DNA of 64,000 nt from Candidatus Palauibacter polyketidifaciens (GTDB lineage: Bacteria > Gemmatimonadota > Gemmatimonadetes > Palauibacterales > Palauibacteraceae). The notes under the pieces are model-generated. The model was given only the letters and a program-made list of their open reading frames with translations, made no database searches and was not told the origin of the DNA. The stretch's first letter is position 1. Each line of letters begins with the position of its first letter. The translations under genes and the position numbers were made by a program. Positions 3,390 through 24,100 of this stretch are shown here, in pieces. The stretch is from the NCBI RefSeq assembly GCF_947581785.1, contig NZ_CANPVO010000038.1, positions 117,049 through 181,048 on the forward strand. The letters are read 5' to 3'.

Positions 3390-3445
3390 CCGCGGCCCGA
3401 TCGCTCTGCGCCTGTCTGGCGAGCGCCGGGCAACGAATCACCGGA

Positions 3446-4975: not shown

Positions 4976-4982
4976 ACTTGTC

Positions 4983-5201
4983 TCACGTCATCGCGTCGCG
5001 GAGGGTCTGCCTCGCTTCTTCGTGCCGGCTGGCGGGCACGCGGAGGACTTTTGCGGCCGCCGTCGGGCCCCAGGACACGGGTGCGAACTCCCCTTCGACC
5101 CTGAAGGGGATGTCGTCCGCCTCGAGGGCGAGCCGCGCCGCGAGGAATTCGCTCTCATCCCACGCCTCGAACACGCGGACCATGTCCTCGCTCCGTGTCA
5201 C
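4983..5201 (-). CDS. small DUF2007-like (putative signal-transducing) protein co-transcribed upstream of the SSS transporter
   Basis: 72 aa. The pattern VRVFEAWDESEFLAARLALEADDIPFRV...KVLRVPASRHEEARQTL matches the DUF2007 consensus as I recall it. It lies 8 bp upstream of the transporter start. Confidence 0.45.
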   Translation of the reverse strand: MTRSEDMVRVFEAWDESEFLAARLALEADDIPFRVEGEFAPVSWGPTAAAKVLRVPASRHEEARQTLRDAMT

Positions 5202-7596: not shown

Positions 7597-7655
7597 CGCC
7601 CGGAGTTCGGCCGCCGCGTTGAGGGGACGTTGATCCGGCCCGGCAGGTTCGGGAC

Positions 7656-8720
7656 ATGTGTTCTCCCGGCAAGACCCCGCGGCTCCGGGCCTTCCTGCGC
7701 CCCGGAGCGGAGCCCGGCGGCTTCGCGCTGCCCTCGGCCATGCTCACGCTTCTGCTCGTATCGCTCATGGCGGCGGGCGGCTTTCTCCTGACCTGGATCG
7801 ACGGACAGTCCGCCCGCGCCTTCGCGCGTTCCACCGAGGCCTTCTACGTGGCCGAGAGCGGACTCGCGACGGCGCTCGCGCTCGCCGAGATGCCGAACCC
7901 TTCCGTGCCGCCCCTCACGCTGGGCGTTGGAACCGCGACGGTCTCCTTCGAGCCGCTCCTCGAACTTCGGCGCGGGGAGACCGTGTACCGCGTCGAGTCC
8001 CGGGGACAGGTGGCGTCCGGCGACGCCACCTTCGCACGGTCCGTGGGACAGCTCCTCTGGGTGGCCGGACCGCCACGGGTGCCCGGCGCGCTCGTCCTCG
8101 TCGGGAGCGCGGGCGCCATCCCCCCGAAGGGGACGATCTCGGGGCTCGATGCGTTCGGGAGTGCCTGTCCGCAACAGCCCTCGCCGATCGCGGGCGTCGC
8201 GTACTGGGGCGGGCCGGCGCCGGCGCCCGATTCGGCGTTGATGATCTCGGGGTCGCCAACGGCACGATCGATGCCGGCCGATGTGTCCGTCACGGCGGAA
8301 ACGGGGATCCGCTGGACGGAACTGCTCGCGGACTGGGGCCCGCGTCCCGACGCGGTAGTACCGCCCGATCCGTGGCCGTCTCCGGGAGCCGATTCGTCCT
8401 ATACGCGGATTTCGGGATCGGGGACGCTCGGTCCGGGCTCCAGCGGGCGCGGCGCCCTCGTGGTGGAGGGCGACCTGACGCTCGACGACGGTTTCGCCTG
8501 GCGGGGGCTCATCCTCGTGGGCGGCGCCCTGCTCCTGAACGGGGACATCTCGATTCAGGGGAGCGTGGCAAGCGGGCTCGCGGGCGGCGTGGGGGTGGCG
8601 GCGGACTTCGGCGGCCACCGCGTCGATCTGCGCTTCAGCGCCTGCGCCGTTGCGGCGGCCGCGGAGCGACTCACCGCGCCGGCCGCGGCCATCCCCGGCA
8701 CGTGGTACGAAGTCTGGTAG
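7656..8720 (+). CDS. hypothetical protein with a PilX-N-like (type IV pilus-associated) N-terminal domain
   Basis: The N-terminus GGFALPSAMLTLLLVSLMAAGGFLL...AFARSTEAFYVAESGL resembles the PilX_N domain. The C-terminus has GALVVEGDLTLDDGFAWRGLILVGGALLLNG, typical of pilus-associated proteins. The opposite strand carries Arg-rich shadow ORFs. Confidence 0.4.
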   Translation: MCSPGKTPRLRAFLRPGAEPGGFALPSAMLTLLLVSLMAAGGFLLTWIDGQSARAFARSTEAFYVAESGLATALALAEMPNPSVPPLTLGVGTATVSFEPLLELRRGETVYRVESRGQVASGDATFARSVGQLLWVAGPPRVPGALVLVGSAGAIPPKGTISGLDAFGSACPQQPSPIAGVAYWGGPAPAPDSALMISGSPTARSMPADVSVTAETGIRWTELLADWGPRPDAVVPPDPWPSPGADSSYTRISGSGTLGPGSSGRGALVVEGDLTLDDGFAWRGLILVGGALLLNGDISIQGSVASGLAGGVGVAADFGGHRVDLRFSACAVAAAAERLTAPAAAIPGTWYEVW

Positions 8721-8740
8721 CCCTGGCAGGCCGTGGCCTC

Positions 8741-9538
8741 TCAGAGATGCTCGGCGACGAGGTCCGGGAGGCCATCGGGGTTGTCCACGTGCAGCCAGTG
8801 GCCGCCGGCGAGTTCGTGAAGGTGTACCCGGCCATTGAGGGTCGCCGCCCGCAATCGCGCGCGATCGTCCGCCGAGAGGATGTCCGACTGGGCGGCTCGC
8901 ACGACGTGGATTTCCGACGGGGGGACGGGCGTCTCGATGACGTCCCAGAGGTCGCGCCTGAAGTAGTCGGCAAGCAGTTCTTCGGCCGCGTCGGGATCCA
9001 GGCGCCACCGATAGCCGGCTTCGACGAGGACGAGGTTCGTCGCCAGCCAGTGCGCGACGGGCGAGGCGAAACCCTCGGCCTCCACCGCGGACACGGCGTG
9101 AAGTCGCTTCGCGAAGGGCCCCGGGTGCCGGCGAATCACGTCCAGCAGCCGGGCGGCTCCGCCGCCGGGCGAGCGGCGGGAGGGGGTCGCGTCGATCACC
9201 CATGTCTGGCCCGGCGCCGCGGCTGCGGCCACCATCAGCGCCGCCTTGCCGCCGAAGGAGTGCCCGAGGACCGCGTCCACGGGCCGCTCGAGCGACTCCG
9301 AGAGTTCGAGCACGTCCTGCACGCACGCGGACAGCGTGTGCGGCGGCTCGAAGTGCGGAGAGTGCCCGTGCAGCCGCAGGTCCACGAGCACAGCTCCCCA
9401 CTCGGGGCGCCGGGCGACGAGCCGGCGGGCGAATGAAGCCCAGTTGCGGCCCGTGCCGTAGATGCCGTGCAGCACGTAGAGCCAGCGCCGGGAACCCGCC
9501 TCCGCGACGGTGTACTGATGCAGGAATGGTCGAGACAC
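8741..9538 (-). CDS. alpha/beta-fold hydrolase
   Basis: GHSFGG nucleophile elbow and overall alpha/beta-hydrolase layout. 265 aa. Confidence 0.75.
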   Translation of the reverse strand: MSRPFLHQYTVAEAGSRRWLYVLHGIYGTGRNWASFARRLVARRPEWGAVLVDLRLHGHSPHFEPPHTLSACVQDVLELSESLERPVDAVLGHSFGGKAALMVAAAAAPGQTWVIDATPSRRSPGGGAARLLDVIRRHPGPFAKRLHAVSAVEAEGFASPVAHWLATNLVLVEAGYRWRLDPDAAEELLADYFRRDLWDVIETPVPPSEIHVVRAAQSDILSADDRARLRAATLNGRVHLHELAGGHWLHVDNPDGLPDLVAEHL

Positions 9539-9558: not shown

Positions 9559-10569
9559 TTGAAGAATCCGTCGGCGTTCGAGCCGGCGCCGGGGCTCCGG
9601 AACGCTCACCTGCAGACGGTGGTGGGGCGGATGGTGCGCCGGCGATTCGAGCCGCGGTACGAGCGGGTTCGGCTCGACACGGACGACGGAGATTTCATCG
9701 ATCTCGACCTGTGGCGGGGACCGGAGACCCCCACGGGCCTGTGCCTCCTTCTCCACGGACTCGAGGGCAGCGCGCGCTCCGGCTACATGGTGACGACGAG
9801 CGAGGCGCTGGCGGCCTCCGGCATCCAGGCGGTGGCGCTCAACTTCCGTTCGTGCAGCGGGGAGCCGAACCGTCTGCCGGGCGCCTACCACTCGGGTCGG
9901 ACGGATGACATCGAGCGCGCCCTGGACTGGATGGCGGTCCGTTTCCCGGGTCTCCCGCGAACCGCGGTGGGGTTCTCGCTGGGCGGGAACGCGCTCCTCA
10001 ACCTGCTGGGGCGGAAGGGCGGCGGCCGGGGTCTCGTCGCCGCGGCCGCCGTGTCGGTTCCGTACGACCTCGAGTCCAGCGCCGACGCCCTGCAGCGCGG
10101 GATGGGGCGCGTGTACGGCCGCCGTTTCCTCCGCAGCCTGCGGGAGAAGGCGCGCGAGAAGGCGGCGAGGTTTCCGGATGTGGTGGCGCCCGGGGCGGCA
10201 AGGGCGCGCACGATTCGCGAGTTCGACGACCGGCTCACGGCACCGATTCACGGCTTTCGCGACGCCGCCGACTACTATGCGCGCTGCAGCGCGAAGCGTT
10301 TCGTGGACCCCGTGGACCTTCCCATGCTTCTCGTCCACGCGCGCGATGATCCGCTCGCCCCCGCGAGTTCGGTACCCGTCGAAACGATCCGGAGACGCTC
10401 GAACCTCTCCCTTGAACTCACGGAGCGAGGAGGGCATCTCGGGTTCGTCGCGCGGGGACGCGGAGAGGGGCGGGCCGGCGCACGGACCGGCTGGCTGGAG
10501 GAGACGGTTTCCCGCTATATCTCGCGGGCCACGCACCGGGCAACGCATCCGGATTCCGGAGTGTTTTAG
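9559..10569 (+). CDS. YheT/ABHD-type alpha/beta hydrolase (COG0429-like)
   Basis: LLLHGLEGSARSGYM...GFSLGGNALLNLLG is the typical YheT-family architecture. 336 aa. Confidence 0.75.
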   Translation: MKNPSAFEPAPGLRNAHLQTVVGRMVRRRFEPRYERVRLDTDDGDFIDLDLWRGPETPTGLCLLLHGLEGSARSGYMVTTSEALAASGIQAVALNFRSCSGEPNRLPGAYHSGRTDDIERALDWMAVRFPGLPRTAVGFSLGGNALLNLLGRKGGGRGLVAAAAVSVPYDLESSADALQRGMGRVYGRRFLRSLREKAREKAARFPDVVAPGAARARTIREFDDRLTAPIHGFRDAADYYARCSAKRFVDPVDLPMLLVHARDDPLAPASSVPVETIRRRSNLSLELTERGGHLGFVARGRGEGRAGARTGWLEETVSRYISRATHRATHPDSGVF

Positions 10570-10617
10570 ATGGTTTGTACGACTATTGTCCGCAGCCTTC
10601 AGGATGGGAGTCATTTC

Positions 10618-13017
10618 ATGCGCGGATTTTCACGAGTCGCGGCCCTTGGGGCCGCCTTCGCCTGCCTGGCCACGCCAGTCACGGGACAGGGTTTCGGACG
10701 CGGCCCCGCCGTCGCGGTCTCCTCCGGCCAGGTCCTCATCGCCGAGAGCGGCGGCCCGACTTCGACGGGAGCCGTCTACGTGTACGAGCGAGGTCCGGAT
10801 GGATGGGCCGTCTCCGCGGAACTTGCGCCCTACGCGGCGGAAGAGGGCGGCCGGTTCGGGATTTCGCTCGCGGTCGACGGCGACCGCATGCTCGTCGGCT
10901 CACCCGGCGCGGCCCACGTGTTCGAGCGGAGCGATGGAGGTTGGGAGGAAGTCGCGACGCTGACGCCGGCCGACCTGCCGGAAGGCAACGTCTTCGGTGC
11001 CGGCGGGGCGATCGCGGGCGACCTTGCGATGGTGGCCGCGACCGGTCAGGGGGGCCGCGGGAGACCCGGTGTCGCCGGCCGCGTCCATTTCTTCGAGTGG
11101 GACGGCTCCGCCTGGAATGAAGCCGGAATCGTCGAATCCCCCGAGGCGGCCGCCGGGGACGGCTTCGGCGCCGCGATGATCACCGATGGCCGGGTGGCGG
11201 CGATCGGTGCTCCCGGGACCGCCGTGGGCAATACGAACGGCGCCGGTGCGGTCTTCTTCTTCACCCGGGCCGATGACGGGACGTGGACGGCGGCGCCGGA
11301 ACCGCTCACGGCCCCGGAAGCGGGCGCGAACGCGGGCTTCGGAGGCGTCCTGCACGGCGAGGACACCGAGGACGGCTTCCGGCTCGTCGTCGGAGCCCCC
11401 GGTGCCGGGGGCGTGGGCATCGCCTACACCTTCACTCCCGATGGCGATGCCTGGAGGCCCGAAGGCCGGCTCTATCCGCCGGTCGTAGCCGGGGACGGCC
11501 GGTCCTTCGGCGGGAACTTCGCCAACGCCTTCGCGGCCGTGGGCGGAGAGATCTGGATCGGCGGGTCCGGCTCCGGCGCGGGCCGCGAGGGGCGGGTGCT
11601 TCGCTACTCGACCGACCCGGCTGGCGGCGTGGAGCTCGCCGGCGCGGTCTCCGCCTCGAACCGGGCCGCGGGCGACGGCTTCGGCGGCAGCCTCGCCGCG
11701 GAGGGCGGCGTCGCGGTCGTCGCGGCGAGCCGCAAGGACTACGGGATGGGGACCGCCTACATCTTCGAGCGGCAGGGCGACGAGTGGGTCGAAACCGCCG
11801 AGGTGTGGAGCGACGCGACGAACTACGCGGCGATCAACGGTCACGAGGTGGGCTGCGAGGAAGGGGTGTCGGCCGACTTCGACTGCAGCGAGGTGAACAT
11901 CCTCTCCTTCATGCCGGTGCAGTCGCTCGGGGCGAACCGCGGCGTCCGCGTCAACGACGTGTGGGGATGGACCGATCCGCAGACCGGTCGCGAGTACGCC
12001 CTCGTTGGGCTCACCGACCAGGCTTCGTTCATCGACATCACCGACTCGCAGAACCCGCGCTACATCGGGCGTCTTCCGATGACGGAGGGCGCGCGGGGCA
12101 GCGTGTGGCGCGACATCAAGGTCTTCAGGGATCATGCCTTCATCGTTTCCGATGGGGCGGGCGACCACGGGATGCAGGTGTTCGACCTCTCGCGCCTGCG
12201 CGACGTGGGGAGCGAGCCGGTCACCTTCGAGGCGGACGCCCACTACGATGGGATCGCGTCCGCGCACAACATCGTGATCAACGAGGAGACGGGCTTCGCC
12301 TACAGCGTGGGATCGAGCGGCGGCGGTGAGACGTGCGGCGGCGGCCTCCACATGATCGATATCAGCGAGCCGACGGAGCCGAACTTCGCAGGCTGCTTCG
12401 GGCACGAGGGCACGGGGCGTCGCGGCACCGGGTACTCGCACGACGCGCTCTGCCTCATCTATGACGGCCCGGACCGCGAGCACGCCGGCAAGGAGATCTG
12501 CTTCGGATCGAACGAGACGGACGTCTCGATCGCCGACGTCACCGACAAGGACAATCCGATCCCCCTGTCGACGGCCACGTACGCGAACGTCGCCTACGCC
12601 CACCAGGGCTGGGTGACGGAAGATCACCGTTTCTTCTACCTGGGAGACGAACTCGACGAACTGAGGACGCAGTTCTCGGGTACGCGGACGATGATCTTCG
12701 ACATCACCGACCTCGACGACCCCGTCCTCGTGAAGGAGCACTTCGGCGAGTCGACGGCGAGCGACCACAACATGTACGTGCTCGGCGACCTGCTCTATCA
12801 GTCGAACTACAACAGCGGACTCCGGATCCTGAACGTGAGCGACCCGGAGAATCCGATCGAAGTCGGCTTCCTCGACACCGTGCCCCATGCGGAGGGCCCC
12901 GCGATGGGCGGCTCGTGGAGCAACTATCCGTACTTCGCGAGCGGGACGATCATCGTGACGAGCGGGAGCGAAGGCCTGTTCATGGTGAAGTACCAGAAGC
13001 CGGAGCTCGTTCCGTAA
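10618..13017 (+). CDS. secreted two-propeller protein: N-terminal FG-GAP-like repeats plus C-terminal LVIVD / choice-of-anchor-B-like beta-propeller (paralog A)
   Basis: Signal peptide (MRGFSRVAALGAAFACLATPVTG). Repeated G-aVYVYERGPDGW-type blades occur about 7 times. The C-terminal NDVWGWTDPQTGREYALVGLTDQASFIDITD...GMQVFDLSRLRD block is LVIVD-like. Paralogous to 16096..18564. Confidence 0.7.
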   Translation: MRGFSRVAALGAAFACLATPVTGQGFGRGPAVAVSSGQVLIAESGGPTSTGAVYVYERGPDGWAVSAELAPYAAEEGGRFGISLAVDGDRMLVGSPGAAHVFERSDGGWEEVATLTPADLPEGNVFGAGGAIAGDLAMVAATGQGGRGRPGVAGRVHFFEWDGSAWNEAGIVESPEAAAGDGFGAAMITDGRVAAIGAPGTAVGNTNGAGAVFFFTRADDGTWTAAPEPLTAPEAGANAGFGGVLHGEDTEDGFRLVVGAPGAGGVGIAYTFTPDGDAWRPEGRLYPPVVAGDGRSFGGNFANAFAAVGGEIWIGGSGSGAGREGRVLRYSTDPAGGVELAGAVSASNRAAGDGFGGSLAAEGGVAVVAASRKDYGMGTAYIFERQGDEWVETAEVWSDATNYAAINGHEVGCEEGVSADFDCSEVNILSFMPVQSLGANRGVRVNDVWGWTDPQTGREYALVGLTDQASFIDITDSQNPRYIGRLPMTEGARGSVWRDIKVFRDHAFIVSDGAGDHGMQVFDLSRLRDVGSEPVTFEADAHYDGIASAHNIVINEETGFAYSVGSSGGGETCGGGLHMIDISEPTEPNFAGCFGHEGTGRRGTGYSHDALCLIYDGPDREHAGKEICFGSNETDVSIADVTDKDNPIPLSTATYANVAYAHQGWVTEDHRFFYLGDELDELRTQFSGTRTMIFDITDLDDPVLVKEHFGESTASDHNMYVLGDLLYQSNYNSGLRILNVSDPENPIEVGFLDTVPHAEGPAMGGSWSNYPYFASGTIIVTSGSEGLFMVKYQKPELVP

Positions 13018-14144
13018 TGGAGATCGCAGCGCTCTTGCCACGAGTAGCCGCCGCCGCGCGGTCCGGCCTCCTCGCCCTGGGACTGGTCGGACTCGTGGCG
13101 GTGCGGGCCGCCGCGGCGGCGGACGTGACCGCCGCCTCCGCCGAAGGCCCGTTCCTCTACGTGGCGAACCAGGAGGCGGCCGCCGTGACCGTTATCGACC
13201 TCGAGACGCACGAGGTCGTCGAGGTCATCGACCTGGAGGCCATGGGGTACGGGGCGAACGCGAAGCCGCACCACGTTGCGGTCGAGCCGGACGGATCGTT
13301 CTGGTATGTGTCGCTCATCGCGGCCAATCAGGTGCTCAAGTTCGACCGCGACAACGAACTCGTCGCCTCCGTCGAGTTCGAGCGGCCGGGCCTCCTCGCG
13401 CTCCACCCCTCGGAGCCGTGGCTCTTCGTGGGGCGGTCGATGGCCGCGGTGAACCCGCCGCAGCGCATCGGCCGCATCGACCGGATGTCGATGGAGGTCG
13501 AGGAATACGACGTCTTCATCCCGCGTCCGCACGCGCTGCTGGCGAGCCCCGACGGCGGGTGGGTCTACGCGGGCAGCCTGGGAGAGAACTCCGTCGTCAC
13601 GGTCGAAGCGGAGAGCGGCGAGGCGGAGTTGCTCAGGCTTCCCGGTTCCGGGGCGATGCCCCACGTCCTCGTGCAATACGCGATCTCCCCGGACGGCGAG
13701 ACGCTCGTCGCAACCGCCGAGATGACCGCCAAGCTCCTCGTATTCGACGTCACGGAGCCGGCGGCGCCGAAGCTCGTGGGGGAGCTGGACGTCGGTGCGC
13801 GGCCGTGGCACCCGAGCTGGTCGGCGGACGGGCGCTGGATCTGGTTCGGCAACCTGGGCGCGAACGAGGTCACGCTGGTCGACACGTCCGACTGGTCCGT
13901 GGCCGCCGTGATTCGGGGCGAAGGCCTCGCCGAACCGCACGGCAGCGTGCTCTCGCCGGACGGATCCCGACTGTACGTGGCGAACCGGAACGAGACCGGG
14001 TCCTACGAGTCGTCGGACCGGATGGGATACGACGCTCCCGGCGGCACGGTCGTCGTCATCGACACCGCGACCCGGGAGATCGTCGACGTCATCGAGACAC
14101 CGCCCTACGCGTCGGGCATCGGTCTCGCCTCCAGCCCGCGCTGA
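13017..14144 (+). CDS. YVTN-family beta-propeller repeat protein (secreted)
   Basis: The start ATG overlaps the upstream TAA (TAATG). Signal peptide present. Repeats of the LYVANxxxxxVTVID type. 375 aa. Confidence 0.7.
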   Translation: MEIAALLPRVAAAARSGLLALGLVGLVAVRAAAAADVTAASAEGPFLYVANQEAAAVTVIDLETHEVVEVIDLEAMGYGANAKPHHVAVEPDGSFWYVSLIAANQVLKFDRDNELVASVEFERPGLLALHPSEPWLFVGRSMAAVNPPQRIGRIDRMSMEVEEYDVFIPRPHALLASPDGGWVYAGSLGENSVVTVEAESGEAELLRLPGSGAMPHVLVQYAISPDGETLVATAEMTAKLLVFDVTEPAAPKLVGELDVGARPWHPSWSADGRWIWFGNLGANEVTLVDTSDWSVAAVIRGEGLAEPHGSVLSPDGSRLYVANRNETGSYESSDRMGYDAPGGTVVVIDTATREIVDVIETPPYASGIGLASSPR

Positions 14145-14157
14145 GAGCCCCGGCGAC

Positions 14158-16080
14158 GTGAGCCGCATGGCCGCACCCCGGAACCGGCAGGCCGCGCCGG
14201 CCGCGCTGACGGCGGCGCTCCTCGCGGCGGGATGCGCCTCGGGCGGCGTCGGCCCGGGCGAGCTGGCGCCGGAGCGCGCAGCCGACGACGAAAGCGGATT
14301 CGTCCGCACCGTCACCCCCTTTCCGGTGTTCGACCAGTCGGGGAACGCGTACGAAATCCCCTTCCTCGGCGGCTTCAACGTCCCCCGCCCGCAGTGGGTG
14401 GATATCGACGGAGATGGAGACCTCGACCTCTTCGTGCAGGAGACGACGGACCGTCTGCTGTTCTTCGAGCGCGAAGACACGCCGGACGGACGGCGCCATA
14501 CCTGGCGGCCGGCTGCGTACTCGGATCTCGAGGTCGGAGAGTGGTTCCGCTTCGTGGATGTCGACGCCGACGGCGACCGGGACCTCCTCGCGGAGTCCCC
14601 CTTCAGCTACATGAAGCTGTACAGGAACACGGGCACCGCCGGCGGGGCCGTATTCGAACTCATCGCGGACACGCTTCGCGACACGCGCGGGGAGGCGATC
14701 TTCTCTGATCGACAGAACATCCCCAATGCGGCGGACATCGACTGCGACGGCCGCCTCGACCTCTTCATCGGCCGCCTGGTGGGGACGGTCACGCGCTACG
14801 AGGCGACGGGCGCGATCGGCGCGAACGCCTCGCCCTTCCGGCACATCACGGACCGCTTCGAGGACATCGAGATCGTCGCCGACCCGGCGGCGGCCGGGGG
14901 CGTGCCGCCCTTCGATGGCCCGGACGCGGGCGGGCCCTTCCCCACCCTGCACGGGGCGAACACGATGGCGCTCGCCGACTACGACGCGGACGGCGACACG
15001 GACATGTTCTGGGGCGACTTTTTCGAGGCCGGGCTCCTCCTGATCGAGAACGCGGGCTCGTGCGAGGCTCCGAACCTCCGCGTGGAGCCGCGTCCCTTCC
15101 CCCTCGACGATCCGATCCGGACGAGCGGCTACAATGCCCCGACCTTCGGCGACTACGACGGCGACGGCGACCTCGACCTGCTCATGGGCGTGCTCGGCGG
15201 CGCCTACAACGCGAACACGACGACCGCCGACAACCTCATGCTCTTCTCGCAGGAGTCCGATGGCGGCTTCGAGCTTCGCACGCGCCGCTTCATCTCGCAG
15301 ATCGATGTGGGCAGCGAGAGCGTGGCCTCGCTTGTGGATCTCGACGGGGACGGCGACCTCGACCTCCTGCTCGGCAACAAGATCGACCCCGGGGATCTGT
15401 CGAACTCGCGCGTCTTCCTGTTCGAGAACGAGGGAAGCGCGACGCGGCCGGCCTTCCGCCGGACGGGCGAGTTCGAGCTGCCGGGCGCCTACCACAACGC
15501 GCCGGCCTTCGGCGACCTGGACGCGGATGGCGACCTCGACCTGCTGCTCGGCACCTGGCGCGACGAGATCCGCTACGTGCGGAACGAGGGCTCGGCCACG
15601 GAGCCCCGCCTCACGCTGGTGGACTCGGCGTTCGTCGAGATCACGCGCGGGAGCAACGCGACGCCCGCGCTCGGCGACCTCGATGGCGATGGAGATCTCG
15701 ACCTCATGATCGGGGAGTCCTCGGGAGCGCTGAACTACTACGAGAACGTCGGCTCCGCCTCGGAGCCGAGCTTCGAATTCGTGAGCGACGAATACGCGGA
15801 GATCGACATCGGCCGGCGGAGCTTCCCCAAGCTCCTCGACCACGACGGGGACGGCGACCTCGACCTCGTCGTCGGTACGGAGTCCGACGGGATCCGCTAC
15901 TTCCGGAACGATGGGAGTCCCGCGGCCCCGAACTTTGTCGAAGCCGACGGCGGCTTCCCCGCCGCCGAGGATCTGCCGCTGTTCGCGACGCCGGAGTTCG
16001 GGGATCTGGACGGGGACGGCGACCTCGACCTCGTCGTCGGCGCCGCCGGGGGCGGCATCTATTACTTCGAACGACGTTGA
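14158..16080 (+). CDS. FG-GAP/VCBS-repeat (ASPIC/UnbV-like) lipoprotein
   Basis: Lipobox LLAAGCASG. More than 10 copies of DxDGDGDLDL Ca-binding FG-GAP/VCBS motifs. 640 aa. Confidence 0.7.
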   Translation: MSRMAAPRNRQAAPAALTAALLAAGCASGGVGPGELAPERAADDESGFVRTVTPFPVFDQSGNAYEIPFLGGFNVPRPQWVDIDGDGDLDLFVQETTDRLLFFEREDTPDGRRHTWRPAAYSDLEVGEWFRFVDVDADGDRDLLAESPFSYMKLYRNTGTAGGAVFELIADTLRDTRGEAIFSDRQNIPNAADIDCDGRLDLFIGRLVGTVTRYEATGAIGANASPFRHITDRFEDIEIVADPAAAGGVPPFDGPDAGGPFPTLHGANTMALADYDADGDTDMFWGDFFEAGLLLIENAGSCEAPNLRVEPRPFPLDDPIRTSGYNAPTFGDYDGDGDLDLLMGVLGGAYNANTTTADNLMLFSQESDGGFELRTRRFISQIDVGSESVASLVDLDGDGDLDLLLGNKIDPGDLSNSRVFLFENEGSATRPAFRRTGEFELPGAYHNAPAFGDLDADGDLDLLLGTWRDEIRYVRNEGSATEPRLTLVDSAFVEITRGSNATPALGDLDGDGDLDLMIGESSGALNYYENVGSASEPSFEFVSDEYAEIDIGRRSFPKLLDHDGDGDLDLVVGTESDGIRYFRNDGSPAAPNFVEADGGFPAAEDLPLFATPEFGDLDGDGDLDLVVGAAGGGIYYFERR

Positions 16081-16095
16081 ATCCCGCAGGAAAGG

Positions 16096-18564
16096 ATGTA
16101 CCTGATGAATAGAACACGGAGCTTCTTCGCCACGGCCGTCTGCGGACTGCTGTTCGTGCCCGCGGCCGACGCGCAGCAGTTCGGCGAGACCGTCGTGCTC
16201 AGCGAGAGCCGGATCATCGTCAGCGAGCCCATCGATCCGAGTGCGGCACCCGCCGAGTCGACGCCGCGCTCGCTGTACGTCTACGAACGCGGCGACGGTG
16301 GCTGGGCGCAGACCGGGACGCTTCGCGCCCCCGAGCACGACGGTCCCGACTACTTCGGCCGCTTCGTCGTCGCCGACGGCGACCGGCTGCTCGTGGGGGC
16401 GACGGCGCTCGACGAGGACGGCGACGGCGAGAGCGACGGCAGCGTGCTCGTCTTCAGCAAGACCGGGGACGGTTGGGAATTCGAGCGCTACCTGCGCCCC
16501 GCAAGCGTGCCGCTCGGGTCTTCCTTCGGTCGCTTCGCGGCGCTGGCGGGCGACCTTCTCGTGGTGACGGCCCTCGGCTACGAGGGGACCGGCGGCGCCT
16601 GGGTATTCGAACGCGGCGCCGGCGGCGATTGGGTCGAGCAGGGGATCCTGACGCCGTCGGATCCCGATCCGCAGCAGGAGTTTTTCGGCTGGGGCGCGCA
16701 CACCGACGGAGAGCGCGTCATCGTCGGCGCCTTCGCCGGCCCGCAGCTTCCCGGCGCCGCGTACGTGTTCGGGCGCGACGCGGGCGGCGCGTGGGTGCAG
16801 GAGGCTCGGCTCGGGCTCACAGGGGACGAGGCCCAGCCCGGCGCCGCGATCGCACTCGACCGCGCCCCCACGATCTCGGTCGGCGTCGATGGAGACCACG
16901 CGATGCTGGGCCTCCCCGGGCTGGACGAGGGGGCGGGCGCGGTCCTCCTCTACGAGCGGCGCTCCTCGGGCGACTGGGTGCGGAACGGATCGCTGGCGGC
17001 GTTCGACCGCCAGCCCGGCGCCGGGTTCGGCGCAACCTTCACGGCGCACGACGGGGAACTCTGGGTCGCCGCCCCCGGCGCGGACCTGTTCGGCGCCATC
17101 TACGCCTTCGACTGGGATGCCGAGGCGAGGCGTTTCGGCTCCGCGAGCAAGATCAACGCGGGCGCGAGCACCGATGCGGGCGACGGGTTCGGAATCTCCG
17201 TCTCCGCGGCGGGTGACCTGGCGGTCGTCGGACAGCCGTGGGACGACGGGTCGATGGGGTCGGCGGTCGTGCTCGAGCGCCGGGACGGGCGCTGGGCCGA
17301 GACGGCGAAGATCTTCATCCCCGAGGAACGCCGTCCGCTGGCGACGCTCGCCGAGGTGGAGTGCGGCGAGGACGGCATGGCCGACCAGTTCACCTGCGAC
17401 CAGGTCGACGTGATCTCGTTTCTGCCTCTCGACCGGATCGGGGGAACGGACCGCGGCATCGAGACGAACGACGTCTGGGGCTGGACCGATCCCGTGACGG
17501 GCCGCGAGTACGCGATCGTCGGCCGCACGGACGGCACGGCGTTCATCGACATCTCCAACCCGGAAGCGCCCGCGTATCTGGGCAGTCTGCCGAAGACGCC
17601 CGGGTCGATCACCAATTCGTGGCGCGACATCAAGGTGTACGCGGACCACGCGTTCGTCGTCGCCGACGGCGCGGGCCGGCACGGGATGCAGGTGTTCGAT
17701 CTCACGCGGCTCCGCGACGTGCGCAACGCGCCCGTCGAGTTCGACGCCGATGCCCTGTACGACGGGATCGCGAGTTCCCACAACATCGTGATCAACGAGG
17801 AGACCGGAACCGCGTACAGCGTGGGGTCGAACGGGGGCGGCGAGACGTGCGGCGGCGGTCTTCACATGATCGACGTCCGCGAACCGAAGGATCCCCGCTT
17901 CATCGGCTGCTTCGCCGACGACGGGTCGCGATACCAGGGCCGGGGGTACACGCACGACGCGCAGTGCGTGAACTACCGGGGACCCGATGCGGAGCACCTG
18001 GGCAAGGAGATCTGCTTCGGAGCCAACGAGAGCTATCTCTCCATCGCCGACGTGACCGATCCCGAGAATCCGGTCTCGCTCGCGACCCAGAACTACGCGG
18101 CCGTCGCATACGCGCATCAGGGCTGGCTCACCGAAGACCACCGATACTTCTACCAGAACGACGAAGGCGACGAGATGGCGTCGGTCAACGCGGCACAACA
18201 GGCCGGGACCGAGCCGGACATGCGGGGCACGCGCACGCTCGTCTGGGACGTGTCGGATCTCGATGACCCGGTGCTGGTCGGCGAACACTTCGGGGAGACG
18301 TTCACGATCGACCACAACCTCTACATCGTCGGCGATCTCATGTACCAGTCGAACTACGTGAGCGGGCTTCGCGTACTCGACATCAGCGACCGCGAGAACC
18401 CGCGCGAGGTCGGCTTCTTCGACACGGTGCCGTGGGACGAGTCCGTCACTTTCGACGGCTCGTGGTCGAACTACCCGTTCTTCGCGAGCGGGACGATCGT
18501 CGTGTCGAGCGGCAAGGAAGGCGTGTTCTTCCTCAAGTACCGCCGTCCGGAACTCGTGCCCTGA
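16096..18564 (+). CDS. secreted two-propeller protein: FG-GAP-like N-terminus plus LVIVD/choice-of-anchor-B-like C-terminus (paralog B)
   Basis: Signal peptide (FFATAVCGLLFVPAADA). Same architecture as 10618..13017, with near-identical C-terminal blocks (NDVWGWTDPVTGREYAIVGRTDGTAFIDIS; GMQVFDLTRLRDV; SGLRVLDISD). Confidence 0.7.
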   Translation: MYLMNRTRSFFATAVCGLLFVPAADAQQFGETVVLSESRIIVSEPIDPSAAPAESTPRSLYVYERGDGGWAQTGTLRAPEHDGPDYFGRFVVADGDRLLVGATALDEDGDGESDGSVLVFSKTGDGWEFERYLRPASVPLGSSFGRFAALAGDLLVVTALGYEGTGGAWVFERGAGGDWVEQGILTPSDPDPQQEFFGWGAHTDGERVIVGAFAGPQLPGAAYVFGRDAGGAWVQEARLGLTGDEAQPGAAIALDRAPTISVGVDGDHAMLGLPGLDEGAGAVLLYERRSSGDWVRNGSLAAFDRQPGAGFGATFTAHDGELWVAAPGADLFGAIYAFDWDAEARRFGSASKINAGASTDAGDGFGISVSAAGDLAVVGQPWDDGSMGSAVVLERRDGRWAETAKIFIPEERRPLATLAEVECGEDGMADQFTCDQVDVISFLPLDRIGGTDRGIETNDVWGWTDPVTGREYAIVGRTDGTAFIDISNPEAPAYLGSLPKTPGSITNSWRDIKVYADHAFVVADGAGRHGMQVFDLTRLRDVRNAPVEFDADALYDGIASSHNIVINEETGTAYSVGSNGGGETCGGGLHMIDVREPKDPRFIGCFADDGSRYQGRGYTHDAQCVNYRGPDAEHLGKEICFGANESYLSIADVTDPENPVSLATQNYAAVAYAHQGWLTEDHRYFYQNDEGDEMASVNAAQQAGTEPDMRGTRTLVWDVSDLDDPVLVGEHFGETFTIDHNLYIVGDLMYQSNYVSGLRVLDISDRENPREVGFFDTVPWDESVTFDGSWSNYPFFASGTIVVSSGKEGVFFLKYRRPELVP

Positions 18565-18579
18565 GGCGCTCGGGTCGCC

Positions 18580-18610
18580 TGCCGTCAGTGGCCACCCGGC
18601 TACTGACGGC
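18580..18610 (+). other. stem-loop GCCGTCAGT-N12-ACTGACGGC between paralog B and the next gene, overlapping its GTG start
   Basis: A 9-bp perfect inverted repeat read directly. No following T-tract. Confidence 0.35.
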
Positions 18611-19784
18611 GCCGGCGCTCGCGCTCCTCGCGGGGGTGGCGGGCTGGGGATGCTCGGATGGCACGGGCCCCACCCCGGCTCCGCCACCGCCGCCTCCCCC
18701 GGCGCCGGAACCCGTCGCTTTCGAACTGACGGCGAACGAAGTGCTGACCGGACTCTCCCAGCCGGTCTTTCTCGCCGCCCCGCCGGGCGACTCGAGACTC
18801 TTCGTCGTCGAGCAGACAGGTCGCATCCGCATCGCGAACGCGGATGGCGGACTCCTCGGGGATCCCTTCCTCGACCTCTCGGCCCGCGTGGGCACGGCCC
18901 CCGAAGGCGGCCTCCTCACGATGGCCTTCCATCCGCGGTACGCGGACAACGGCCAGGTCTTCGTCTACTACACCGATACGGGAGACGACACTGTGGTCGA
19001 GCGCTACACCGTCTCGGGGGATCCCGACCGTCTCGATCCGGGCTCCGCGAAGCGGATCCTCGCGCTCACCCAGCGTCGGCGGAACCACAACGGCGGCATG
19101 CTGCAGTTCGGACCCGACGGGATGCTGTACATCTTTCTCGGCGACGAGGGCGGGGCGGGCGACCCATTCGGCAACGGGCAGAATCCGGAGACGCTGCACG
19201 GTTCGATCCTTCGCATCGACGTCGATGGGGGCGACCCGTACGCGATCCCGGACGACAACCCCTTCGCAGGAGAGGAGGGCGGGCGGGGCGAGATCTGGGC
19301 CATCGGCGTCCGGAATCCGTGGCGCTCGACCTTCGACTTTGCGGACCACGTCCTCTACGTGGCGGACGTGGGCCAGAACGAACGCGAGGAAATCAACGCG
19401 GTGCCGGCGGGCGAGGCGGGCGTGAACTACGGCTGGAACACGATGGAGGGGTCGGCCTGTTACGAGAGTTCCGAGTGCGACATGTCGGGTCTCACGCTGC
19501 CCGTCGTCGAGTACGTCCACGACGGCAGCGTCTGCTCGGTGACCGGAGGATACGTGTACCGCGGATCACAGCTCCCCGAGATTGCGGGGCACTACTTCTA
19601 CTCGGATTTCTGCACCGGCTTTCTGCGGAGTTTCCGCTTCGACGGCAGTCAGGCGACGGACGCGAGACGCTGGAACGTGGGAAGCCTCGGCGCGGTGTCC
19701 TCCTTCGGCGTCGACGGCTCCGGCGAACTCTACGTCGTGAACCTCACCGGCTCCGTGTCCCGACTGGAACGCCGCCAGCCTTAG
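18588..19784 (+). CDS. PQQ-dependent soluble sugar (aldose/sorbosone) dehydrogenase-like lipoprotein (GSDH/YliI family)
   Basis: Lipobox (LAGVAGWGCSDG) and a Pro-rich linker. The blocks NHNGGMLQFGPDGMLYIFLGDEG, IWAIGVRNPWR and NYGWNTMEG match the GSDH family. GTG start inferred. Confidence 0.7.
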   Translation: MATRLLTAPALALLAGVAGWGCSDGTGPTPAPPPPPPPAPEPVAFELTANEVLTGLSQPVFLAAPPGDSRLFVVEQTGRIRIANADGGLLGDPFLDLSARVGTAPEGGLLTMAFHPRYADNGQVFVYYTDTGDDTVVERYTVSGDPDRLDPGSAKRILALTQRRRNHNGGMLQFGPDGMLYIFLGDEGGAGDPFGNGQNPETLHGSILRIDVDGGDPYAIPDDNPFAGEEGGRGEIWAIGVRNPWRSTFDFADHVLYVADVGQNEREEINAVPAGEAGVNYGWNTMEGSACYESSECDMSGLTLPVVEYVHDGSVCSVTGGYVYRGSQLPEIAGHYFYSDFCTGFLRSFRFDGSQATDARRWNVGSLGAVSSFGVDGSGELYVVNLTGSVSRLERRQP

Positions 19785-19833: not shown

Positions 19834-20628
19834 CTAGACTCTGAACGTCAGCCCCAGCTGGAAGAGCACGAAGTCGACATCGGAGGCGATGGGCGAGAAC
19901 GAACTTCCGCCGAAGCCGTCCTCGACGATGCTCCCGGGCACGAGATACTCCGTGCGGCCATGCCTTCGGTACTGGGCTTCCAGCCTCAGCAGGACCGGTT
20001 TGGCGGACCAGTTGAAGGGGATCGAGAGCCCGCCGCCGAAGCCGTACGCGGCGCGCACGTCATCGAAGTTCACCGTCGTGCCGTCGTAGGGAGAATCGTA
20101 GAGGTCCCAGCCGTGCTCGACGGAGCTGACCGTGAAGAAATAGCCGAGCCCGGCGAAGCCGTTCACGAAGGGCTGGACGGGGCCGTACGGAAGCCGGATC
20201 TCGGGGCCGAGTCCGAGGTAGCCCACGTTGTTGCGCGTGACGATGTCGGTCAGGATCCGGTCCGTCACCGAGAATACGGGGACGCCGAGCGTCTCCGATC
20301 CGTAGTTTACGTATCCGGCATCGAACCGAACCCGGAAGGCGGGGGAGTCCTCGAAGCCGAGCAGGGCGGTGAGCGCCCCCCCGAAACCTTCGTTGACGAA
20401 CGAACTGAACTGCCCATGCGGCGCCATCAGGGAGACGGTGGCGCCCAGATCCCACTGCGTGCCGTTTCCGCCCGAAGACGACTCCCCGGGCGGTTGGCCG
20501 GGAAGGCGTCCGCCGGGAACCTGCGCCGCCGCGTCCGCAGGCGCGAGCGCCGCCAGCGCCCCAAGCGCCGTCAGCGCGACGAGCCCGGCCCCGAGCACCC
20601 TCCGGCTCCCCATCCGTGTACGCATCAT
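19834..20628 (-). CDS. outer-membrane beta-barrel protein (OmpW/porin-like, family unassigned)
   Basis: Signal peptide (RRVLGAGLVALTALGALAALAPADAAAQ). Alternating amphipathic strands and an aromatic C-terminus (GLTFRV). The start is set at the internal MMRTRM. Confidence 0.55.
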   Translation of the reverse strand: MMRTRMGSRRVLGAGLVALTALGALAALAPADAAAQVPGGRLPGQPPGESSSGGNGTQWDLGATVSLMAPHGQFSSFVNEGFGGALTALLGFEDSPAFRVRFDAGYVNYGSETLGVPVFSVTDRILTDIVTRNNVGYLGLGPEIRLPYGPVQPFVNGFAGLGYFFTVSSVEHGWDLYDSPYDGTTVNFDDVRAAYGFGGGLSIPFNWSAKPVLLRLEAQYRRHGRTEYLVPGSIVEDGFGGSSFSPIASDVDFVLFQLGLTFRV

Positions 20629-20717
20629 CTGTCCCGCTCCCTCTCGCGTCCGCGTGGCGTCCGACCCGGCGCCCGCCGTCACCCACCGTCCCGTAGACGG
20701 CCGCACGCGGGAATCCG

Positions 20718-21530
20718 TCACAGCGTAATCTCGCCGGTAAGGTAGAGCGCCGCACGGCCGGCGATCGTCACGCGGTCCCCGAGGTGGCGACAGATGAGGG
20801 TGCCGCCGCGGGCACTGATCTGCCGTGCCTCAAGCGGCGCCTCGCCGCGATCCAGCCGCTCGGCCCAGTAGGGCGCCAGCGTGCAGTGCGCGGAGCCCGT
20901 GACCGGATCCTCCGGCACGCCGACGCTGGGCGCAAAGAAGCGGGACACGAAATCCGCGCTCACGCCCGGCGCGCTCACGATGATCCCGAGGCGATCCAGT
21001 CCGCGCAGTCGGCTGAAATCCGGCTTCAGCTTCCGGACGTCGTCTTCGGCATCGAGGAGGACGAGATAATCCCGGTCCGACGCCAGTACCTCCGCGGGTG
21101 CCGCTCCCAAACCCTCCACGAGGGCGCGGGGAGCTTCGCGCGACACCGCCGGGCGCGCCGGAAAATCCATCACGAGGAGATCTCCCTCGCCCCGCTCCAC
21201 GATGAGTTCGCCGCTTCTCGTCTCGAAACTCACGCTCTCGCGGCCGGGCGCCAGCCGCTCGAGAATGACCCAGGCGGAGGCCAGCGTTGCGTGTCCGCAC
21301 AGGTCGACCTCGGACACGGGCGTGAACCAGCGGAGCCCGAACCCGCCCTCCCCGCTCCCGTCGCCCCCGTCGTCCCGAACGAAGAAAGCGGTCTCCGAGA
21401 GGTTGTTCTCCGCCGCGATCTTCTGCAGAACGTCGTCGTCGAGCCACGCCTCGAGCGGGCAGACGGCGGCCGGATTGCCCTCGAAGGGGCGGTCCGAGAA
21501 GGCGTCGAGCTGATACAGCGGGATCTTCAT
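20718..21530 (-). CDS. PhzF-family (phenazine biosynthesis-like) isomerase
   Basis: MKIPLYQLDAFSDRPFEGNPAAV...TGSAHCTLAPYW matches the PhzF/YHI9 fold motifs. 271 aa from ATG 21530. Confidence 0.8.
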   Translation of the reverse strand: MKIPLYQLDAFSDRPFEGNPAAVCPLEAWLDDDVLQKIAAENNLSETAFFVRDDGGDGSGEGGFGLRWFTPVSEVDLCGHATLASAWVILERLAPGRESVSFETRSGELIVERGEGDLLVMDFPARPAVSREAPRALVEGLGAAPAEVLASDRDYLVLLDAEDDVRKLKPDFSRLRGLDRLGIIVSAPGVSADFVSRFFAPSVGVPEDPVTGSAHCTLAPYWAERLDRGEAPLEARQISARGGTLICRHLGDRVTIAGRAALYLTGEITL

Positions 21531-21779
21531 GCGGTCTCCGTGTGGCGTGGCATCTCGAGGCGGCTGCGCACCGGTTCCGGGTGGCTGCCCGTGGTAAAAT
21601 AGCGTCGTGCGGCTGAGATTCGCGAGTTGGCGGCCCGCGGCAAAAGCCCTGCCGTGTTCGAGCGGCGAACCACCCCGCCGGGGTTCACCCTGCGGAGCGG
21701 TGCGGGTAGATTCGACCCACCCGCGCGGATCGGCCGCGCACCAGCGGGATGCGGAAGAAACGAGCAAGGAAGGCGTCAC

Positions 21780-22256
<477 letters not shown>

Positions 22257-22297: not shown

Positions 22298-24100
22298 GTG
22301 AAGCGCCGGCGTCCGCGACGAGCCGCCGGAGCGGCGATCCGAGCCGCCATGCTGGCGGGCGCCACGGCAGGCGCCCTCTGTCTTTCCGCTTCCCCGGCGG
22401 GCGCGCAGGAGCGCTCCTGGCACATCGAGAGCTTCCACGCCGACATCCGGGTGCTGGAGAACGGGTCCATCGAGGTGACCGAAACGATCCGGCCGCGGTT
22501 CGATGGAAGCTACAACGGGATCTACCGGGCGATTCGCGTCGAGTACCGAATCAACGGATTCCGCTACAGGCTGCGCCTTTCCGTGAACGAGGTCACGGAC
22601 GCGGACGGCAATCCCCTGCGCTACGAGTCGAGGCGCGATGGGGACGACCTGAACACAAAGATCTGGGTGCCCGGCGCGGTCGACACGGTCCGCACGGTCC
22701 GACTCTCCTACGGCGTGACGCACGGGCTCCGCTTCTTCGAGGCGGATGAAGGAGAAGACGGCATCGTCGAGGCGTACGACGAACTCTACTGGAACGTGAC
22801 GGGGACCGAATGGCCCGTCCCGATCGAGTCGGCGAGCGCGACCGTGCGGCTCCCGCAGGCGGTCGCGGGCGTGCGCGCCCACGCCTTCACGGGGGGCTAC
22901 GGCGCGACGGGACAGGACGCGGTGGTCGATGTCGCGGGAACGCGGGTCGACGTGCGAACCGACCGGCCGCTCGGCTTTCGCGAGAGCCTGACCATCGGGA
23001 TCGGATGGAATGCCGGCGTCGTCCGGCGGCCCACGGCGATCGACCTCGCCGCCATGTACCTGTTCGCGAACTGGCCGCTCTTCCTGCCCTTCTTCGCCTT
23101 CGCCTTCATGTACCGGCGCTGGAACGAGCGGGGTCGCGACCCGGAGATCGGGTCGATCGAGCCACGCTACGAACCGCCCGGCGACCTGACGCCCGCCGAG
23201 GTCGGCGTCATCGTCGACAACCGGGCCGACCTGCGTGACATCACCGCGACGCTCGTCGACCTCGCCGTCCGGGGGCACCTCACGATCGAGGAACGCGAGG
23301 AGAAGCGCCTCCCGGGTCTCGCGTCGGGGAAGGACTACGTCTTCGAGCGACGCGATCTCCCGGGAGACGATCTGGCTCCACACGAAGGCGCGCTGCTGCG
23401 GGCGGTCTTCGGGGGGCGCGGGACCCGCCGGCTCTCCGACCTCAGGGACCGCTTCTACAAGGACCTGCCGGAACTGAAGTCGACGTTGCTCGCGACGCTC
23501 ATCGAGCACGGCGTCTACACGGCATCACCGACCATCGTCGCCGGAAAGTACGTCGGTTTGGGGTTCCTGGTCGGAATCGTGATCCTTTTCGGCGGCCAGC
23601 TCGCTCAGACCCAGTTGGCGCTCCCGCTCGCGATGCCGGCCGTCCTGCTGGCGGCCATCACCTCGGCGCTCATCATCATGATATTCGGATTCTTCATGCC
23701 GGCCCGCACAAGGAAGGGCACGGAACTGCTGCGGCAGGTGAAAGGGTTCGAGGAGTTCCTCACGCGTGTCGAGTCCGACCGCTACAGGCGGAAGATCGCA
23801 GGTCCGGAGATGTTCGAGAGGTGTCTTCCGTACGCCATGGCGCTGGGCGTCGGGACGCAGTGGGCGCAGGCGTTCGGGGACCTGTATCGCGAACCCCCGG
23901 ACTGGTATCATGGGCACGCTCTTTCGACCTTCAACTCTCACATCCTGGTCTCGAACCTGAACAGCATGTCCGCGGAGACGCACAGCGTGATGCAGTCCGC
24001 GCCGCGCAGTGCCCAGGGGTCGAGCTTCTCGAGTGGCGGGATCTCGGGAGGCGGCTTCTCGGGCGGCGGCTTCGGCGGAGGTGGAGGAGGCGCATTCTGA
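22298..24100 (+). CDS. DUF2207-family membrane protein
   Basis: Signal peptide, a large N-terminal extracytoplasmic domain, TM helices and a Gly-rich C-terminus (GGISGGGFSGGGFGGGGGGAF), as in DUF2207 proteins. GTG start. Confidence 0.7.
   Translation: MKRRRPRRAAGAAIRAAMLAGATAGALCLSASPAGAQERSWHIESFHADIRVLENGSIEVTETIRPRFDGSYNGIYRAIRVEYRINGFRYRLRLSVNEVTDADGNPLRYESRRDGDDLNTKIWVPGAVDTVRTVRLSYGVTHGLRFFEADEGEDGIVEAYDELYWNVTGTEWPVPIESASATVRLPQAVAGVRAHAFTGGYGATGQDAVVDVAGTRVDVRTDRPLGFRESLTIGIGWNAGVVRRPTAIDLAAMYLFANWPLFLPFFAFAFMYRRWNERGRDPEIGSIEPRYEPPGDLTPAEVGVIVDNRADLRDITATLVDLAVRGHLTIEEREEKRLPGLASGKDYVFERRDLPGDDLAPHEGALLRAVFGGRGTRRLSDLRDRFYKDLPELKSTLLATLIEHGVYTASPTIVAGKYVGLGFLVGIVILFGGQLAQTQLALPLAMPAVLLAAITSALIIMIFGFFMPARTRKGTELLRQVKGFEEFLTRVESDRYRRKIAGPEMFERCLPYAMALGVGTQWAQAFGDLYREPPDWYHGHALSTFNSHILVSNLNSMSAETHSVMQSAPRSAQGSSFSSGGISGGGFSGGGFGGGGGGAF

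Follow-up and report, generated by a model that had tools for sequence, protein, structure and literature searches.

Do five neighbouring genes for secreted propeller proteins form one functional unit, and what could such a unit do outside the cytoplasm? The question is raised by a stretch of 64,000 nucleotides from Candidatus Palauibacter polyketidifaciens (Gemmatimonadota; contig NZ_CANPVO010000038.1, positions 117,049 to 181,048), here called the window, in which the initial annotation, made from the sequence alone, described a co-directional cluster on the forward strand. Two paralogs, here named A and B, bracket a YVTN propeller gene (gene 2) and a VCBS/FG-GAP lipoprotein gene (gene 3), and a GSDH-family gene (gene 5) follows. 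The comparison with other genomes, reported below, gave a smaller answer than the annotation had proposed: the conserved unit is made of three genes, an A-type gene, gene 2 and gene 3 (the triad), in an order kept across three phyla.

A three-gene unit within the five-gene cluster

Species-representative genomes were scanned with an alignment of gene 2, whose relatives were located at no fewer than 453 places, and 80 loci were taken for synteny; they belong to Gemmatimonadota, Rhodothermales/Bacteroidota and Acidobacteriota, and one of them is that of the cultured Roseithermus sacchariphilus (L071). The window proteins were compared with these loci by tblastn, and the denominators given here count the loci with enough flanking sequence. 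At gene 2 identities of at least 85% (17 loci) the A-type gene lies upstream in 16/16, gene 3 lies downstream in 16/16, B comes after gene 3 in 15/15 and the GSDH-family gene is present in 14/15. For identities of 60-85% (9 loci) the corresponding counts are 7/8, 8/8, 7/8 and 1/8. Below 60% are 54 loci, referred to as the distant loci (gene 2 identity 43-59%, best segment), where A is still upstream in 35 of 43 and gene 3 downstream in 38 of 40, while B follows gene 3 in one of 36 and the GSDH-family gene in none of 34. Gene 3 is the tightest partner of gene 2. It is because B and the GSDH-family gene rarely or never follow in the distant loci that the unit has to be limited to three genes, and the "PQQ-type" (pyrroloquinoline quinone) ending of the cluster is therefore a genus-level addition. 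Once antisense shadows of the triad are set aside, all-against-all clustering of open reading frames (ORFs) gave no further family with members in over 7 of the 54 distant loci, and in three distant contigs for which genes were called the triad stood alone in 3/3, surrounded by unrelated genes that were mostly on the opposite strand. The five-gene synteny claimed at first is thus true of the close relatives but not of the distant loci, which keep three genes only; likewise, the single operon that was proposed has an operon-like layout, but the unit kept by selection comprises three genes and not five.

The origin of B was evaluated with a neighbour-joining tree of choice-of-anchor B domains, without bootstrap. 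The B-type genes, that is those downstream of gene 3, form one clade, whose sister is the A-type clade of that lineage; the two nest among the upstream genes of other Gemmatimonadota. Because of this position B is, as far as the tree can be read, a copy of the ancestral first gene that arose only in the marine, Palauibacter-related lineage and was inserted after the two middle genes, in agreement with the duplication that the annotation had suggested.

Other arrangements were also observed. Two tandem B-type paralogs come after gene 3 in L018, L020 and L022 (at about 13100-18200 of each locus), and gene 2, gene 3 and B are found in this order without an upstream A-type gene in L028 and L043. 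The related Palauibacter-type genomes L001 (7579-12472) and L003 (7720-12460) bear an extra B-type copy, 72-73% identical to B, which lies directly 3' of a same-strand pair of Penicillinase_R (BlaI-like) and Peptidase_M56 (BlaR1-like) genes. This pair suggests that the third copy may be under signal-responsive control; no BlaI/BlaR1-like pair was found within about 5 kb of the window cluster. The triad of L068, recorded as "Rhodospirillaceae" (Tara Red Sea), is almost identical in the tree to that of L066, a metagenome-assembled genome (MAG) of Gemmatimonadota; its contig is probably mis-binned and gives no support for a fourth phylum. In the distant carrier L085 the triad is preceded, at a distance of a few kb, by genes for a separate Big_2 + LVIVD protein and for a PD40 propeller (3166-5172), and is followed immediately by a dienelactone-hydrolase gene, which recalls the alpha/beta hydrolase that neighbours the cluster in the window.

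Gene structure, domains and conserved residues

The five genes lie on the forward strand at 10618-19784, exactly where they had been placed (Table 1). The database sequences that match B and gene 2 best come from Gemmatimonadota close to Candidatus Palauibacter. In a window with a G+C content of about 70% the coding strand can be recognized from the third codon positions, whose G+C (GC3) is 0.855-0.912 in the five genes, whereas the long antisense ORFs combine a high GC1 with a low GC3, the pattern expected of shadow frames. On account of its codon-position GC (0.896/0.494/0.695), the 1,532-amino-acid ORF at 14089-18687 on the reverse strand, antisense to genes 3 and B, is a shadow of the high-GC coding strand and not a gene, and the same is true of the reverse-strand ORF at 10900-13041.

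Table 1. Positions of the cluster genes, of their neighbours in the window and of the haem-fused orthologs of gene 2 in other loci (aa, amino acids)
Feature	Locus	Position	Strand	Description
gene A	window	10618-13017	+	799 aa; signal peptide, FG-GAP_2 propeller, choice-of-anchor B/LVIVD propeller; first gene of the triad
A, N-terminal domain	window	about 10618-11820	+	FG-GAP_2 integrin-alpha-like propeller
A, C-terminal domain	window	about 11854-12990	+	choice-of-anchor B domain
gene 2	window	13017-14144	+	375 aa; secreted 7-bladed YVTN/YncE-like propeller; central gene of the triad
gene 3	window	14158-16080	+	640 aa; probable lipoprotein, FG-GAP_3/VCBS repeats, CRTAC1-like; third gene of the triad
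gene B	window	16096-18564	+	822 aa (819 aa from ATG 16105); two-propeller paralog of A
gene 5	window	18588-19784	+	398 aa from GTG 18588; probable lipoprotein, GSDH-family 6-bladed propeller, HHIP-like subtype
no Pfam family	window	7656-8720	+	354 aa; called by codon-position GC
Abhydrolase_6	window	8741-9538	-	called by codon-position GC and Pfam; divergent from the 9559-10569 hydrolase
alpha/beta hydrolase	window	9559-10569	+	48 bp before A; Pfam match; no hydrophobic N-terminus or signal peptide
no Pfam family	window	19834-20721	-	295 aa; convergent with the cluster
PhzF-family gene	window	20718 to about 21509	-	convergent with the cluster
EVE-domain gene	window	21627-22256	+	downstream of the PhzF-family gene
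DUF2207 gene	window	22298-24100	+	downstream of the EVE-domain gene
gene 2 haem fusion	L031	4291-5718
gene 2 haem fusion	L041	9482-10990		Bacteroidota MAG
gene 2 haem fusion	L052	3028-4560
gene 2 haem fusion	L064	9554-10978
gene 2 haem fusion	L067	9419-10978
gene 2 haem fusion	L087			database protein P0191

The spacing of the genes also agrees with the first description. A GGGAG motif lies 7 nt upstream of the ATG of A, the stop codon of A (TAA, 13015-13017) overlaps the ATG of gene 2 at 13017 by 1 bp (TAATG), and gaps of 13 bp (14144 to 14158) and 15 bp (16080 to 16096) precede gene 3 and B. The start of B may be the ATG at 16105, which would match a 100%-identical database protein (P0001, 819 aa); exact database look-ups of the window protein B and of P0010 gave no record. 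For gene 5 the likeliest start is GTG 18588, 23 bp downstream of B, the ORF start at 18432 being unlikely. When the sequence was scanned for sigma-70 promoters and intrinsic terminators none could be assigned, and no convincing terminator was seen inside the cluster. The 1-bp overlap and the gaps of 13-23 bp suggest one transcript, and the layout can be called operon-like on these sequence features. All five proteins show, in a heuristic check, a basic N-terminus followed by a hydrophobic stretch, and a lipobox-like Cys is present in those of gene 3 (AAGC) and gene 5 (GWGC), so that the signal peptides and lipoboxes first assigned are matched by secretion-type N-termini in 5/5 and export is predicted for the whole set. 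In gene 5 a Pro-rich linker (PTPAPPPPPPPAPEP) lies behind the lipobox-like Cys.

Searches with hidden Markov models upheld the domain calls for the cluster, namely FG-GAP_2, choice-of-anchor B, YVTN, VCBS/FG-GAP_3 and GSDH. Both A and B have the two-propeller architecture that had been described for them: FG-GAP_2 (PF14312, cut-off 23 bits) is matched in three stretches by each (55.5 bits for A, 79.8 for B) and the choice-of-anchor B model TIGR04312 (cut-off 100 bits) is covered at positions 2-363 of 364 by A (447.9 bits) and 3-363 by B (430.9 bits). LVIVD (PF08309, cut-off 20.2 bits) gave 24.2 bits for A and 19.9, slightly under the cut-off, for B, and it is listed for many A/B orthologs in precomputed Pfam. 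Full-length identity between the paralogs is 46%; the C-terminal domains are the closer pair (about 62%) and the N-terminal domains the more divergent one (about 32%), and a profile of the N-terminal domain matches integrin alpha-L (E-value 1.4e-4). Gene 2 scores 57.5 bits with the YVTN repeat TIGR02276 (cut-off 27.85). Structure prediction, which had been proposed as a check, gave 7-bladed propellers of 28 strands both for the C-terminal domain of A (AlphaFold2, predicted local distance difference test, pLDDT, 88.6) and for gene 2 (pLDDT 86.8). Gene 3 matches FG-GAP_3/VCBS (PF13517) in seven stretches with 141.4 bits (cut-off 26.9) and FG-GAP (PF01839) with 87.6 bits; it holds ten calcium-type motifs of the form D-x-D-x-D-G-x-x-D, and its only solved match is CRTAC1 (9etn, E 6.6e-6).

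Gene 5 is a member of GSDH (PF07995; 156.5 bits against a cut-off of 25, profile positions 3-322 of 332) and follows B closely when read from its GTG, as the annotation had it, but the name "PQQ-type sugar dehydrogenase" is not supported. The protein fails the PQQ glucose/sorbosone dehydrogenase model TIGR03606 (73.7 bits against 434.55), and its closest solved relative is the vertebrate Hedgehog-interacting protein (HHIP; 119.6 bits, E 1.7e-33), while bacterial PQQ sugar dehydrogenases score about 60-77 bits (E 1e-20 to 1e-15).

The strongest constraint on the A-type protein falls on its second propeller. Among the distant loci, hence over three phyla, the choice-of-anchor B domain is about 63% identical, whereas the FG-GAP_2 domain has kept structural residues alone (W, G and F). 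The choice-of-anchor B domain has one polar dyad per blade, with four His in the set: N446-D447, R498-D499, H550-N551, H608-D609, H662-Q663 and H717-N718 of A stand at predicted innermost-strand starts, and the seventh, S768-N769, in predicted coil just ahead of the last blade. In propellers the innermost strands start around the mouth of the central channel. The family is very large, with 19,444 clusters (50% identity) at E <=0.001 and 2,163 at E <=1e-30, and in 52 diverse representatives the D of N-D, the R-D, H-N, H-D, H-Q and H-N dyads and five of the six Cys are invariant or nearly so. The same representatives have type IX secretion system (T9SS) tails, FG-GAP_2, immunoglobulin (Ig)/PKD, Calx-beta and similar modules as fusion partners, and no recognisable catalytic domain was found fused to the choice-of-anchor B domain in any of the 52.

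Gene 2 has a His set of its own. Across 53 distant orthologs H85, H172 and H308 are kept in at least 97% and H86, H216 and H265 in at least 90%, and the conserved His stand at, or just before, predicted innermost-strand starts, one blade being without His. In a Foldseek search the top match of the gene 2 model was the archaeal S-layer YVTN domain 1l0q (E 8.1e-19), followed most frequently by propellers of NosZ (query-normalised TM-score, TMq, about 0.70) and, among others, by WD40-type propellers, cd1 nitrite reductase and hydrazine synthase beta. The set is specific to the family, because at the aligned P-x-G positions 1l0q shows M, Q, L, S and A instead of His and hydrazine synthase beta has one of the gene 2 His in common and no more. 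In 5 of the 80 genomes, which represent several lineages, and in a further database protein (Table 1), the gene 2 ortholog is fused to an N-terminal CxxCH domain of the mono-haem cytochrome c type, which scored 29-38 bits with PSCyt1, over the gathering cut-off, in both orthologs tested; this recurrent fusion is the best hint of a role of gene 2 in electron transfer, and suggests one.

Some named families were tried for gene 2 and rejected. They are the YncE equivalog (NF052280; 32 bits, cut-off 400), the PQQ-catabolism-associated propeller (TIGR03866; 65.7 bits, cut-off 287.3) and L-NosZ (NF052460; 58 bits against 700, over model positions 51-193 of 480 only). A NosZ-type CuZ propeller was also discarded, there being five or six conserved His against seven and no cupredoxin/CuA domain in the 375 residues.

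Possible functions of the triad

The synteny, the constrained His-rich residue sets in two proteins and the occasional haem c fusion are directly observed. Starting from these data it is possible to hypothesize, with a confidence that stays a little under even, that the triad proteins form an extracytoplasmic module, acting jointly as a redox system or a metal-dependent enzyme. Its most constrained part, the choice-of-anchor B propeller, would be the catalytic head of a metallo-enzyme, and the YVTN propeller of gene 2 would offer a second His-rich metal site, receiving or donating electrons, a role proposed because some of its orthologs are fused to the haem c domain. The FG-GAP_2 propeller and the VCBS lipoprotein would keep the substrate in place or display it at the membrane, or serve as a tether, and B would provide another catalytic head, its N-terminal propeller differing from that of A.

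Several observations weigh against such a module. In the 54 distant loci neither metallochaperone nor cytochrome genes are conserved near the triad; gene 2 has no sequence match to NosZ in the PDB and no cupredoxin domain; the haem fusion occurs in 5/80 loci only, and gene 2 of the window is without it. That the three proteins associate physically is presumed only from gene order, the putative placement of the A and gene 2 residues round the central channel follows from predicted strand positions, and the anchors and Ig-like fusion partners suit adhesins as well as surface enzymes. It is a long shot that the idea could be narrowed to gene 2 as the catalytic subunit of a new periplasmic copper or multi-metal redox enzyme, with a channel site of five or six His fed by haem c and the other propellers as obligatory partners. 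The His-held site would then be modelled on CuZ of NosZ and on thiocyanate dehydrogenase, and the triad, if this were true, would be a new widespread respiratory or detoxifying complex in Gemmatimonadota, Rhodothermales and Acidobacteriota.

The fusion partners and the structural matches could also be explained by a cell-surface set for adhesion or host interaction, in which integrin-alpha-, CRTAC1- and HHIP-like propellers bind matrix or host ligands and no catalysis takes place. This would suit the sponge- and coral-associated Palauibacter, several close relatives being named for such hosts; the matches of the A/B N-terminal domain to integrin alpha-L, of gene 3 to CRTAC1 and of gene 5 to HHIP point in the same direction, as do the fast evolution of the FG-GAP_2 domain, common in binding surfaces, and the T9SS tails and the Ig, PKD and Calx-beta modules joined elsewhere to choice-of-anchor B. 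We nevertheless consider it unlikely. The triad is kept just as well in one cultured strain and in MAGs of Gemmatimonadota, Acidobacteriota and Rhodothermales with no host in their record titles; the identity of the choice-of-anchor B domain over three phyla, with invariant His/Asp/Asn dyads, is more like an active site than an adhesin, and the haem c fusions of gene 2 would be hard to account for.

The annotation had itself pointed to another function, the binding of glycans or aromatic compounds at the surface with oxidation of the released sugar or aromatic product by the GSDH-family protein, for which we found no pointer and which we judge improbable. It is true that gene 5 covers the PF07995 profile nearly in full, that one distant locus adjoins a GH20 (glycoside hydrolase family 20) gene and that FG-GAP/VCBS propellers are found in some polysaccharide lyases. 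However, the linkage of the GSDH-family gene drops from 14/15 through 1/8 to 0/34 as gene 2 identity decreases; the oxidation step loses its support because gene 5, besides failing TIGR03606, is closer to a non-enzyme, HHIP, than to the PQQ dehydrogenases of bacteria; beside the triad there is no conserved gene for a carbohydrate-active enzyme, a SusC/D-type protein, a TonB receptor or a transporter, and no lyase or glycosidase family of Pfam or NCBIfam is matched by any of the five proteins. That the five are independent secreted proteins, mere neighbours with neither function nor transcript in common, is hardly credible: promoters and terminators could not be assigned, and gene 5 and B come and go among lineages, but the order of A, gene 2 and gene 3 is kept over three phyla while all flanking genes differ, and the overlap and short gaps in the window point to a single transcript.

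Neighbouring genes and comparison with known systems

The alpha/beta hydrolase gene immediately upstream of A, which is kept in Palauibacter-related loci and found in only 2 of the 54 distant ones, probably lies outside the secreted module; a weak hairpin followed by a T-run is present at 10548-10569. Farther upstream the ORFs 7658-9436 (+) and 7593-9401 (-) were rejected as genes, since codon-position GC and Pfam identify them as shadow frames, and the matches of the former in related loci therefore reflect DNA conservation only. Downstream of the cluster the gene order (295-aa protein, PhzF, EVE, DUF2207) is the same in the close relative L002.

Every protein of the cluster belongs to a catalogued and mostly uncharacterised family; what sets the three genes apart is their unusually wide and rigid conservation together with their enzyme-like features. 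A full-text literature search found no description of the triad nor of the function of choice-of-anchor B, and a search on 8Q9X found nothing; the literature on LVIVD holds only generic statements of the type "surface protein, maybe attachment", and the Palauibacterales paper mentions none of the cluster genes. A very large secreted family thus becomes approachable through a fixed partnership across phyla, with the active-site-like His-rich residue sets and the haem c fusions of the partner as a further experimental handle and with one carrier, R. sacchariphilus, in culture. If the triad is a metallo-enzyme, an extracytoplasmic activity of a new kind could come to light in bacteria that are abundant in soil and sediment and in association with sponges; as a binding module only, the triad would be ordinary, another operon of secreted repeat proteins.

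Among known systems, gene 5 shares with HHIP an aligned stretch of the form H-x-G-G-x-L-x-F-G-P-D-G, while E. coli YliI/Asd (2g8s; 71.2 bits) and soluble glucose dehydrogenase (sGDH; 59.7 bits) both score below HHIP. Gene 2 resembles NosZ in the superposition of its model on the NosZ propellers and in the electron-transfer domain (haem c) of some orthologs, and the lactonase-type clade III L-NosZ is its second-best NCBIfam match. In NosZ the seven His ligands of CuZ stand at innermost-strand starts. No nos accessory genes were found near the triad, either in the ORF clustering of the distant loci or in the three gene-called contigs.

For A and B the nearest enzyme is the haloalkylphosphorus hydrolase of Sphingobium sp. 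TCM1, the metallo-phosphotriesterase Sb-PTE (5hrm), likewise a 7-bladed propeller with LVIVD-like blade motifs. Besides integrin alpha-L it is the sole solved chain reached by the A/B profiles (E 1.1e-4), and it ties as top Foldseek match of the choice-of-anchor B model (TMq 0.67), its overall fold rank being mixed. In Sb-PTE a binuclear Mn centre is bound by His and Glu residues of the propeller's central channel, and we know of no triad context for this enzyme. It differs from A and B in having no FG-GAP_2 domain, and the identity is 15%, with motif alignments that are local only. Within the choice-of-anchor B/LVIVD family A and B are predicted to be exported like the other members, and their scores are well above the TIGR04312 cut-off, but their domain is C-terminal, after FG-GAP_2, with no C-terminal anchor, whereas many relatives have the domain first and then T9SS or Ig-like modules; the fixed partnership with YVTN and VCBS genes also sets them apart from the family as described in the full-text literature. 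Finally, gene 3 resembles the CRTAC1/ASPIC-type propellers in its FG-GAP_3 repeats and calcium-type loops, and differs from them in that no UnbV/ASPIC C-terminal domain was detected in the Pfam scan, in its lipoprotein-type N-terminus and in being paired with the propeller of gene 2.

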